The translations under genes were made by a program, and so were the position numbers. Shown in pieces: positions 23,983-25,525 of a stretch of 64,000 nucleotides of DNA (position 1 is its first letter; every line of letters starts with the position of its first letter). Below the pieces are notes generated by a model. That model did not search any database. It was not told the origin of the DNA and worked only from the letters and a program-made list of their open reading frames with translations. This DNA comes from Gracilinanus agilis. Its lineage: Eukaryota. The stretch spans positions 348,421,388 to 348,485,387 of the forward strand of contig NC_058133.1 of the NCBI RefSeq assembly GCF_016433145.1, read 5' to 3'.

Positions 23983-25525
23983 TGATTTGGGGCAAACTAC
24001 ACACACAAGATGTATTGGGGCAAACTAAGTGGTATTTTGAGGTTCAGTGTTGCTGAAAGTCACAGAATGTTCTTTCCCTGAAAATTCCTAATCAAAAAAA
24101 GTATAAAGTGTATTCTAATTTAATGAAGATATTATCCATAAATAAATCAGTGTGTCTCTTCAATGCAAATTTCTAATCTGCAAAATGAGGAATTGGAATG
24201 AATAATCTCTAAAGCCCCCTTAAGCTCTAAAATGTATGGCTCTCTTTCCAGTTGGTCAATCACAATAAAACTCTTAAACTATATAGACACATTCTGACTT
24301 TCTGAATTAATCAGATTAAACATCATAATAAAAATGCCTGTGTTATTCCATCATGATTAGACAAATGATGATTTATATTTTAAATTTCAACTATATAATA
24401 AAAGGGAGGAGAAAAAGGTATAAAGATAGAAAATGCAATGTATCAATCAATGTATCAAGTTCCTTCTTCCTGTGCTAGTCTATAAATTACATGTCTAATA
24501 TGTGAATGGTTCTAGACTTTTACCTGCTTTTTTTGAATGAGAAAATACTCTGAATGATAAATATGATCATTTGTGGGATCTTCTACCTGTAACAAATAAA
24601 ATTAATATAGAAGGATATAATTAAAGATATTAGGGTTTTATTGTAAGGCATATTGATAATTTAAAAAAACCATGTGCCTGCTAAGATCTAATTCAAATGC
24701 CCCACCATGCTTTCCCCCTGGTTGCTTCATAGGATAGAGAACTTCCCAATCAAGTTCTGAGTCTTTATACCTCTGTCTATGTAATCACACTTCCTGCCAC
24801 CTGTATTACACAAGAGGAATCATGGGAAATGTAGTTTTCAAGTCCTCTAAACGTCCACAGGAAGTTTATATCATGGATCTCAATATTAAGACCCCCAAAT
24901 TTCCAATATCACATTCCTCCCTGAAGAGTGGCGAGAGACTGATCTCCCAAAGGATCACAGGGGGGAATGTAAAAATTGGAAGACCTTGTACCCCCTGAAA
25001 CTACATTACCCAAATTCCCTTTCACCATACCCATAATTCCTTAAGCTTTTTCTTATTGGACACTGGTTTTCGCGGGCGGTATTAAAATTTGGTTTGAGTA
25101 GTCACAGGGTTCTTCTTGGGACCAGAGGCTACGTGGTGAAGGGTGAGTTGGGACTCTTTCCTCACATTTCTCTAGCTTTCTAATTTTATATTAATAAATC
25201 CTTATAAATATCATACTTTGCAGGCACTGAATATTAATTTTAAAACTTACATACCCAAATCCACCAGGGTTCTCCAACTGTACCATGCACCTAGAGAAAA
25301 ATAAGGTCACTAAACAAAATATATATGTTATGGTAGACATACATAGGGATGGTTTAAGTATATAGTAAATTTTAAAAGGGAGGAAAAAAATCCCATTAAA
25401 TTTAGAAATCACATTGACTATTAAAAATGGTTTAAGTTTTAAAAATCAAGATCATTAATGTCCAAAATGTTTTGAGCACACTTTCAAGATATATATATCT
25501 TGAATATGTATATGTATTTATTTAC

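Follow-up and report, generated by a model that had tools for sequence, protein, structure and literature searches.

A chimeric insert of two retroviral LTRs as a probable newly gained intron in the ASCC3 gene of Gracilinanus agilis

Introduction

In the accessible text of a recent introner survey, LTR elements account for about 12% of the classified introners (Gozashti et al., 2025, PMC12130899). In switchgrass (Panicum virgatum), both full elements and solo LTRs of Copia are described there as functional introns, and the Copia introner families of Panicum virgatum and Papaver bracteatum, with duplications of 4-5 bp, are scored as "co-opt both" (PMC12130899). That text sets the threshold for an introner family at at least four similar introns in non-paralogous genes, and it gives zero families for G. 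agilis and zero for both Monodelphis assemblies (PMC12130899). Splice sites derived from target duplications have been reviewed for DNA-transposon introners, including the Micromonas IE elements, and the accessible part of the same review mentions singular transposon- or retrotransposon-derived introns from many eukaryotes (PMC11282704). For mammals, the accessible passages of one study state that genome-wide comparisons found no intron gains, and that introns were gained in domesticated genes, with the intron source not identified (PMC3257199). As far as its accessible text goes, a further mammalian paper concerns intron losses only (PMC7605268).

Here we analyzed a window of 64,000 nucleotides from the 3.7-Gb genome of G. 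agilis, which is assembled in few very large contigs. A chimeric retroviral insert interrupts a coding exon of ASCC3 in this window, and we consider it likely that the spliceosome removes the insert exactly and that it represents a newly gained intron. Like an introner, this intron is made of a transposable element and would use splice sites that were carried or co-opted; as a singleton, it falls below the threshold of at least four introns and would be missed by family-based introner surveys.

Results

As determined by protein comparison, ASCC3 is represented in the window by 15 exon pieces on the minus strand. The top protein match of the window exons is ASCC3 of G. agilis (XP_044531332.1), to which the exons near the insert are 100% identical, barring alignment overhang into introns. 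In minus-strand order, an exon is followed by GGTA, a 664-bp insert with the ends TG..CA, a second GGTA, and again exon. The features of the locus are as follows, in minus-strand order except for the predicted intron, which is given last:

25255..25290, minus strand: first (5') half of the interrupted ASCC3 exon, 12 codons in 36 nt, 100% identical to XP_044531332.1 residues 1033-1044, with an AG acceptor upstream
25252..25255, minus strand: upstream GGTA copy (from the sequence); its G is the last exon base and its GTA the intron start
24588..25251, no strand assigned: chimeric insert of retroviral origin, 664 bp, bounded by TG..CA (LTR family matches and terminal sequence)
24968..25251, plus strand: family A 3' LTR, 284 bp, antisense to ASCC3, giving donor positions +4 to +6 (TGT) (family matches)
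24959..24967, plus strand: polypurine-tract-like purine run directly before LTR A (sequence; at the same place in family copies)
24935..24947, no strand assigned: near-palindromic 13-nt motif, switch from family A (reverse) to family B (forward) (family comparison)
24914..24922, minus strand: polypurine-tract-like purine run directly before LTR B (sequence and family copies)
24588..24913, minus strand: family B 3' LTR, 326 bp, sense to ASCC3, giving branch-like motifs, T-rich tract, and acceptor CA (family matches)
24764..24769, minus strand: TATAAA within LTR B (motif in the sequence only)
24637..24642, minus strand: AATAAA within LTR B, ~50 nt before the acceptor, kept in 45 of 49 family copies (likewise a sequence motif)
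24584..24587, minus strand: downstream GGTA copy (from the sequence); its first G completes the acceptor AG
24524..24586, minus strand: second (3') half of the interrupted ASCC3 exon, 21 codons in 63 nt, 100% identical to XP_044531332.1 residues 1045-1065, with a GT donor downstream
24587..25254, minus strand: predicted new intron, 668 nt, GT..AG, phase 0 (sequence and read-through of XP_044531332.1)

An earlier sequence-only reading had singled out the span 24584-25255 as an LTR that landed on a GGTN target and became an intron. This span corresponds exactly to the insert (24588-25251) plus both GGTA copies (25252-25255 and 24584-24587), but the insert is not a single LTR: two different LTRs of 284 and 326 bp lie back to back in it. 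A solo LTR was thus rejected, given the opposite orientation of the two LTRs and the 54 bp of internal sequence between them, and an origin by LTR-LTR recombination of one provirus was rejected as well. The sequence between the LTRs comprises the purine run of A, the 13-nt near-palindrome, and the purine run of B; the internal 3' ends of families A and B can be aligned, and both contain the 13-nt motif, in opposite sense. When a 101-nt query over the A/B switch was searched in the genome, both sides were matched only at the ASCC3 locus (best 40 of 911 candidates). The observation is not a chance fit, since each half of the insert is the end of an LTR family with many copies. Judged from these matches, the insert is a pair of 3' LTRs facing outwards within one target duplication, and the duplication implies that its flanks were once contiguous.

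Removal of the intron joins the 36 nt and 63 nt to a 99-nt exon in phase 0, which corresponds to residues 1033-1066 of XP_044531332.1 with 100% identity. This protein reads straight through the insert junction with the frame exactly restored; it is a RefSeq prediction that was probably made from the same or very similar DNA and is not independent proof. If the insert is retained, a stop codon follows five codons in. Both half-exons are in phase 0 and multiples of 3 in length, so that new in-frame skipping isoforms are possible. Three stretches of the Monodelphis protein (residues 83-115, 122-274, and most of 1556-1602) are missing from XP_044531332.1, and the DNA that adjoins the window on its left consists of N. 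The genome search gave one ASCC3 locus, one of 3 matches among 7 candidates, and none of these 7 candidates is a compensating ASCC3 retrocopy. The other two matches are paralogous and are taken by us to be SNRNP200-like: an intron-bearing gene (L138) and a broken intronless copy (L137, G000:C4:349213500-349223000), which lies at a distance of ~0.77 Mb. At the site homologous to the ASCC3 insert, an intron is lacking in the SNRNP200-like paralogue.

All but four of the 668 intron bases (664) belong to the insert, and the remainder is one copy of the duplication. On the minus strand, the donor reads G|GTATGT at 25255/25254 and the acceptor CAG|G at 24587/24586. In the proposed mechanism, the donor would be composed of G|GTA from the duplication and TGT from LTR A, and the acceptor of the T-rich end and CA of LTR B together with the G of the second duplication. 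The acceptor side has an 89-nt AG-free zone with four YTNAY branch-like motifs, a pyrimidine share of 0.69, and a T-rich tract, and thus the predicted intron carries the U2-type marks of GT donor, AG acceptor, pyrimidine tract, and branch motif. By eye, donor and acceptor are as good as the native ASCC3 sites. A second donor-like site is found inside the intron at 25033. Both splice signals are ordinary for families A and B, so the insert would have been spliceable on arrival. No extra conservation in the intron's 3' end was seen relative to family B copies, and as the acceptor features are typical of these copies, no later tuning would be needed. The AATAAA and TATAAA of LTR B on the sense strand could cut ASCC3 transcripts short or initiate transcription of the second helicase cassette. 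Among contigs of four sequencing runs that were compared with the insert and the 5' half-exon, we detected repeat copies and none that bridged the junction; as some records had been filtered out, the gaps in coverage at the half-exon in X2 and over the LTR B body in X3, X5, and X16 are uninformative.

Protein comparison bears on whether ASCC3 has remained functional. Downstream of the insert, G. agilis has 6 lineage-specific amino-acid changes in 938 columns, in comparison to 7 in Monodelphis, and 4 of the 6 are at a gap edge in the model; upstream, there are 6 in G. agilis versus 1 in Monodelphis, with 5 of the 6 at a gap edge. Neutral decay over the age of the insert predicts ~78 changes downstream and ~9 stops in the gene, assuming a divergence of 3.7%, which is half of the difference implied by the 92.6% identity of the B half with its 15 nearest copies. 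The observed changes are far below this expectation, and full-length ASCC3 protein is therefore very likely still made. In the split exon itself, 33 of 33 residues are the same as in the Australian marsupials Sarcophilus, Sminthopsis, and Macrotis, and the stretch is nearly invariant among eight aligned vertebrate proteins. Zero changes in 33 codons would have a probability of about 0.06 under neutrality, which is modest support for inclusion of the half-exons. As ASCC3 is a single-copy gene under purifying selection, exact splicing is likely.

Besides exact splicing, the frame can be kept only by skipping of the half-exons. The insert could be tolerated chiefly because transcripts leave out one or both of them, or exactly spliced mRNA could be a minor isoform beside products that end at the poly(A) signal of the LTR. 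The divisibility of 36 and 63 nt by 3, the shortness of 36 nt for an internal exon, the AATAAA and TATAAA on the sense strand of the intron, and the fact that no contig of the four runs spanned the junction would all suit this explanation. We nevertheless regard it as unlikely, as the 33 residues are unchanged relative to three marsupials in a nearly invariant stretch and as the quality of donor and acceptor is comparable to that of native ASCC3 sites. Less probable still is that the insert broke ASCC3, leaving a null allele or pseudogene, or that it is an assembly artefact, with an annotation that merely bridged it by a convenient GT-AG pair. Gene predictors are known to bridge insertions, and segments are missing from XP_044531332.1, but a broken gene is at odds with the absence of excess protein change and of a second ASCC3 copy, and a distance of 7-12% between the two halves and the family copies nearest to them marks the insert as old. 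The exact duplication and the intact ends are also unlike products of misassembly, and sequencing run X1 contains 0.89 of the words of the region, though X1 may be the source sample. We therefore retain exact splicing of the chimeric insert as the preferred reading.

In a first look at the genome, 5381 candidates were found for the B half (downstream 326 bp) and 1870 for the A half (upstream 284 bp). An exact flanking duplication of 4 bp was present in 19 of 50 family B copies with a full-length LTR match and absent from 31; in family A, 3 of 24 copies with a full-length match had a duplication of 4 bp, 2 had one of 3 bp, and 19 had none. Family B copies have a TGG motif after the LTR, which we take to be primer-binding-like, and a purine run before it. 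As both lie in host orientation, LTR B is sense to ASCC3. For LTR A, these LTR-side features and the gag/pol fragments of long A elements lie on the opposite strand, and LTR A is therefore antisense. The long family A elements L134 and L135 carry gamma-like Gag_p30, RVP, RVT_1, RNase H, integrase, and MLVIN_C domains (Pfam matches of L135: Gag_p30, 3e-14; RVT_1, 3e-15; MLVIN_C, 2e-11). On these domains, family A is classed as a gamma-like ERV1 family. None of five open stretches of family B matched Pfam, and the class call for family B is based on the 4-bp duplication and on the internal 3' end that can be aligned to A. Both integration marks of ERV1 / gamma-like elements, TG..CA ends and a 4-bp duplication, are present at the ASCC3 insert.

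Several other arrangements of these families were seen. L032 (about 690-1820) is an element of ~1.1 kb with two family A LTRs and ~0.55 kb between them, likely a non-autonomous form. At L058/L059 and L040, A and B copies lie <1 kb apart in mixed orientation, and L058 and L059 look like one sequence on two contigs. In six unlinked SINE-like copies (L073, L077, L081, L085, L091, and L092, around 1460-1660), the 3' end runs into ~20-50 nt of an antisense family B LTR end, which is followed by an A-rich tail in five of the six; this is seemingly a SINE subfamily that took the LTR end along.

The B half is 92.6% identical to its 15 nearest fetched copies, which are 92.0% identical among themselves, and the A half is 87.5% identical to its nearest fetched copies, which show 87.8% among themselves. 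By these identities, the insert appears to be about as old as typical members of families A and B. At a neutral substitution rate of 2-3 per billion per site per year, the age of the insert would be roughly of the order of 10-20 million years.

Most likely, the chimera formed before integration. Minus-strand copies of A and B RNA may have paired at the near-palindrome, each extending the other, and the paired strands would yield DNA with two integrase-ready ends. That two nascent minus strands paired at the shared near-palindrome to give such a two-ended DNA is what we infer, with about even odds. Formation after integration, with one family nested in the other and subsequent deletions, has an appreciable though less than even probability and would leave the intron reading unchanged. 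Nested and neighbouring A/B copies do exist (L040, L058/L059), no other two-ended insert was found, and identity to the respective family is lower for the A half (87.5%) than for the B half (92.6%). Such a history, however, demands the precise loss of one element's end up to the duplication of the other, while both outer ends are intact LTR ends next to a single common duplication, and A and B match the motif at the switch in opposite orientation. The identities of LTR pairs within elements also overlap (A, 86-92%, 2 elements; B, 90-95%, 2 elements), so that both families may have been active together, which speaks against sequential nesting. In a pattern search for other two-ended inserts, palindromes of 120-150 bp made up of A or B ends gave 0 hits. 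One candidate, L139, has two B LTRs 800 bp apart and was rejected, as these have no shared duplication. Formation before integration remains our preferred explanation.

The sequence-only reading had also stated a general rule, namely, that any LTR insertion with a duplication starting with GGT becomes an intron, in both orientations and also as a full provirus. Enumeration of all targets with TGT..ACA LTR ends bears out its geometry: TG..CA ends and a GGT-starting duplication always give GT..AG, with removal of the element plus one duplication at any length or phase, and the ASCC3 locus fits. The end geometry also holds for a full provirus, the enumeration concerning the ends only, and further working offsets exist beyond GGT-starting targets. 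The step from this geometry to an intron at any GGTN landing goes too far, as GT and AG are insufficient and both donor and acceptor need extra conditions. The donor consensus has a purine at +3 and G at +5. With 4-bp targets, GGTA and GGTG alone provide these (2 of 256); with 5-bp duplications, none of the 16 GGT-starting targets does, whereas AGGTR does (2 of 1024), and 6-bp targets with a good donor are NAGGTR or GGTRNG (16 of 4096). With a duplication that ends in GTR, donor positions +4 to +6 are filled by TGT of the LTR, and this gives an advantage to ERV1 elements with their 4-bp duplications.

The presumed equivalence of both LTR orientations fails at the acceptor, the usability of which depends on the LTR end that faces downstream. 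Oriented as at ASCC3, none of 23 family A copies contains a branch-like motif; when flipped, all 23 do, but a competing AG lies within 15 nt in 13 of them. Family B in sense orientation has an AG-free zone with a median of 88 nt and a branch-like motif in 48 of 49 copies (36 of 49 when flipped). A plain solo A LTR at the ASCC3 site would probably splice poorly, and the chimera would have paired the donor-completing end of A with the good acceptor end of B. The rule is thus a special case of known introner geometry that needs two extra conditions and predicts few cases, and "self-cleaning", as the intron had been called, means removal by the host spliceosome and not self-splicing.

The ends of family B had 3124 exact genome matches in comparison to 486 control matches, and 24 of them were followed by GGT. 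Four exact junction patterns from two families only gave 58 loci (24, 15, 4, and 15), counts that are a lower bound. An exact GGTN duplication on both sides was present at 20 of these 58 loci, which represent 16 distinct elements including the ASCC3 insert. The 38 loci left out comprised 6 without an LTR match, the rest being truncated, 3' LTRs of longer elements, or bearing altered duplications. Among the 15 other elements, 5 have a GGTA or GGTG duplication and 6 a repeat-matching flank. The 26 stop-free flank peptides, from 12 of these 15 elements, gave 0 matches above Pfam cut-offs. As only ~0.07 coding flanks are expected, this comparison had almost no power, and the negative result neither supports nor refutes the rule. 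The best sub-threshold match was weak (DUF6681, E 0.042), and both ASCC3 exons used as controls matched Sec63. The ASCC3 intron is the one coding case found among the 16 distinct exact-GGTN elements, and the at least four similar introns of the introner definition are not reached.

By a rough neutral estimate, 100,000 insertions would yield 0.5-1.1 usable cases and 300,000 would yield 1.6-3.2, with an assumed CDS share of 0.9%, assumed insertion numbers, and GGTR at 5 of 2097 positions in 13 ASCC3 exons. By this rough estimate, a mammalian genome would hold about zero to a few such introns. The predicted searchable class of ERV-derived introns therefore survives in its geometry and with one apparent case, while in mammals it is estimated to be tiny. 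GGTN landings could alternatively be a substantial source of introns, with tens per ERV-rich genome. The existence of one apparent case and the 3124 exact end matches of family B alone versus 486 in the control are compatible with this, and published pipelines that, in their accessible description, need at least four similar introns would miss singletons (PMC12130899). We consider such abundance quite unlikely in view of the 0.5-1.1 usable cases per 100,000 insertions, of the 0 of 15 other exact GGTN copies with a Pfam-supported coding flank, and of genome-wide mammalian comparisons described, in the accessible text, as without gains (PMC3257199).

Discussion

What is new here is the locus, a two-LTR insert as a probable intron in an old mammalian gene; the general principle adds little beyond the introner literature. 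In the accessible text of the survey, the explicit rule of GGTR plus TGT was not found (PMC12130899). Our literature search, which covered few subscription journals, brought up neither an account of this intron in ASCC3 nor a mammalian case of exact intron gain from an ERV. According to the accessible parts of the sources, introns are lost from old genes of mammals and not gained (PMC3257199, PMC12130899), and the ASCC3 case would be a direct counter-example. Its source element, its insertion scar, and both splice sites can be explained, and it would offer a natural minigene for the tolerance of a new intron on arrival. The narrowed rule (GGTR, AGGTR, or NAGGTR/GGTRNG, plus a usable LTR end) offers a genome-wide test at little cost and accounts for why such gains, though they occur, are rare. 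We suggest tentatively, as a possibility that is open to considerable doubt, that this is a clean, source-identified ERV intron gain in an ancient mammalian gene via an integration product with two 3' LTRs, and the first member of a small class, with several cases in an ERV1-rich genome, which escapes family-based searches and which a duplication ending in GTR plus TGT of the LTR predicts.

In the AGGT tandem-duplication (proto-splice-site) model, a duplicated G|GT context gives both intron ends. The ASCC3 intron shares this origin of both ends from a duplicated G|GT context, but its duplication has 4 bp and was made by an integrase, and the terminal CA of the LTR provides the acceptor A. As in the intron gains of domesticated genes and retrogenes, a new intron has probably appeared in a mammalian gene; those genes, however, are young, and their introns came from existing sequence that was intronized or have a source that is not identified, whereas ASCC3 is ancient and single-copy, and both source and scar of its insert can be identified. 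Introners of the Micromonas IE type resemble the ASCC3 intron in that the duplication gives a splice site and excision restores the mRNA exactly; in the accessible text, they are MITE-like with inverted repeats and usually carry one site (PMC11282704), whereas duplication and LTR end each contribute to both sites in ASCC3. The Copia LTR introners of plants are exonic LTR elements that are spliced out with both splice sites co-opted, as is predicted for the ASCC3 insert; unlike these, the ASCC3 intron is of vertebrate ERV1 type, lies in a mammal, occurs as a single copy, and is a chimera of two LTRs.
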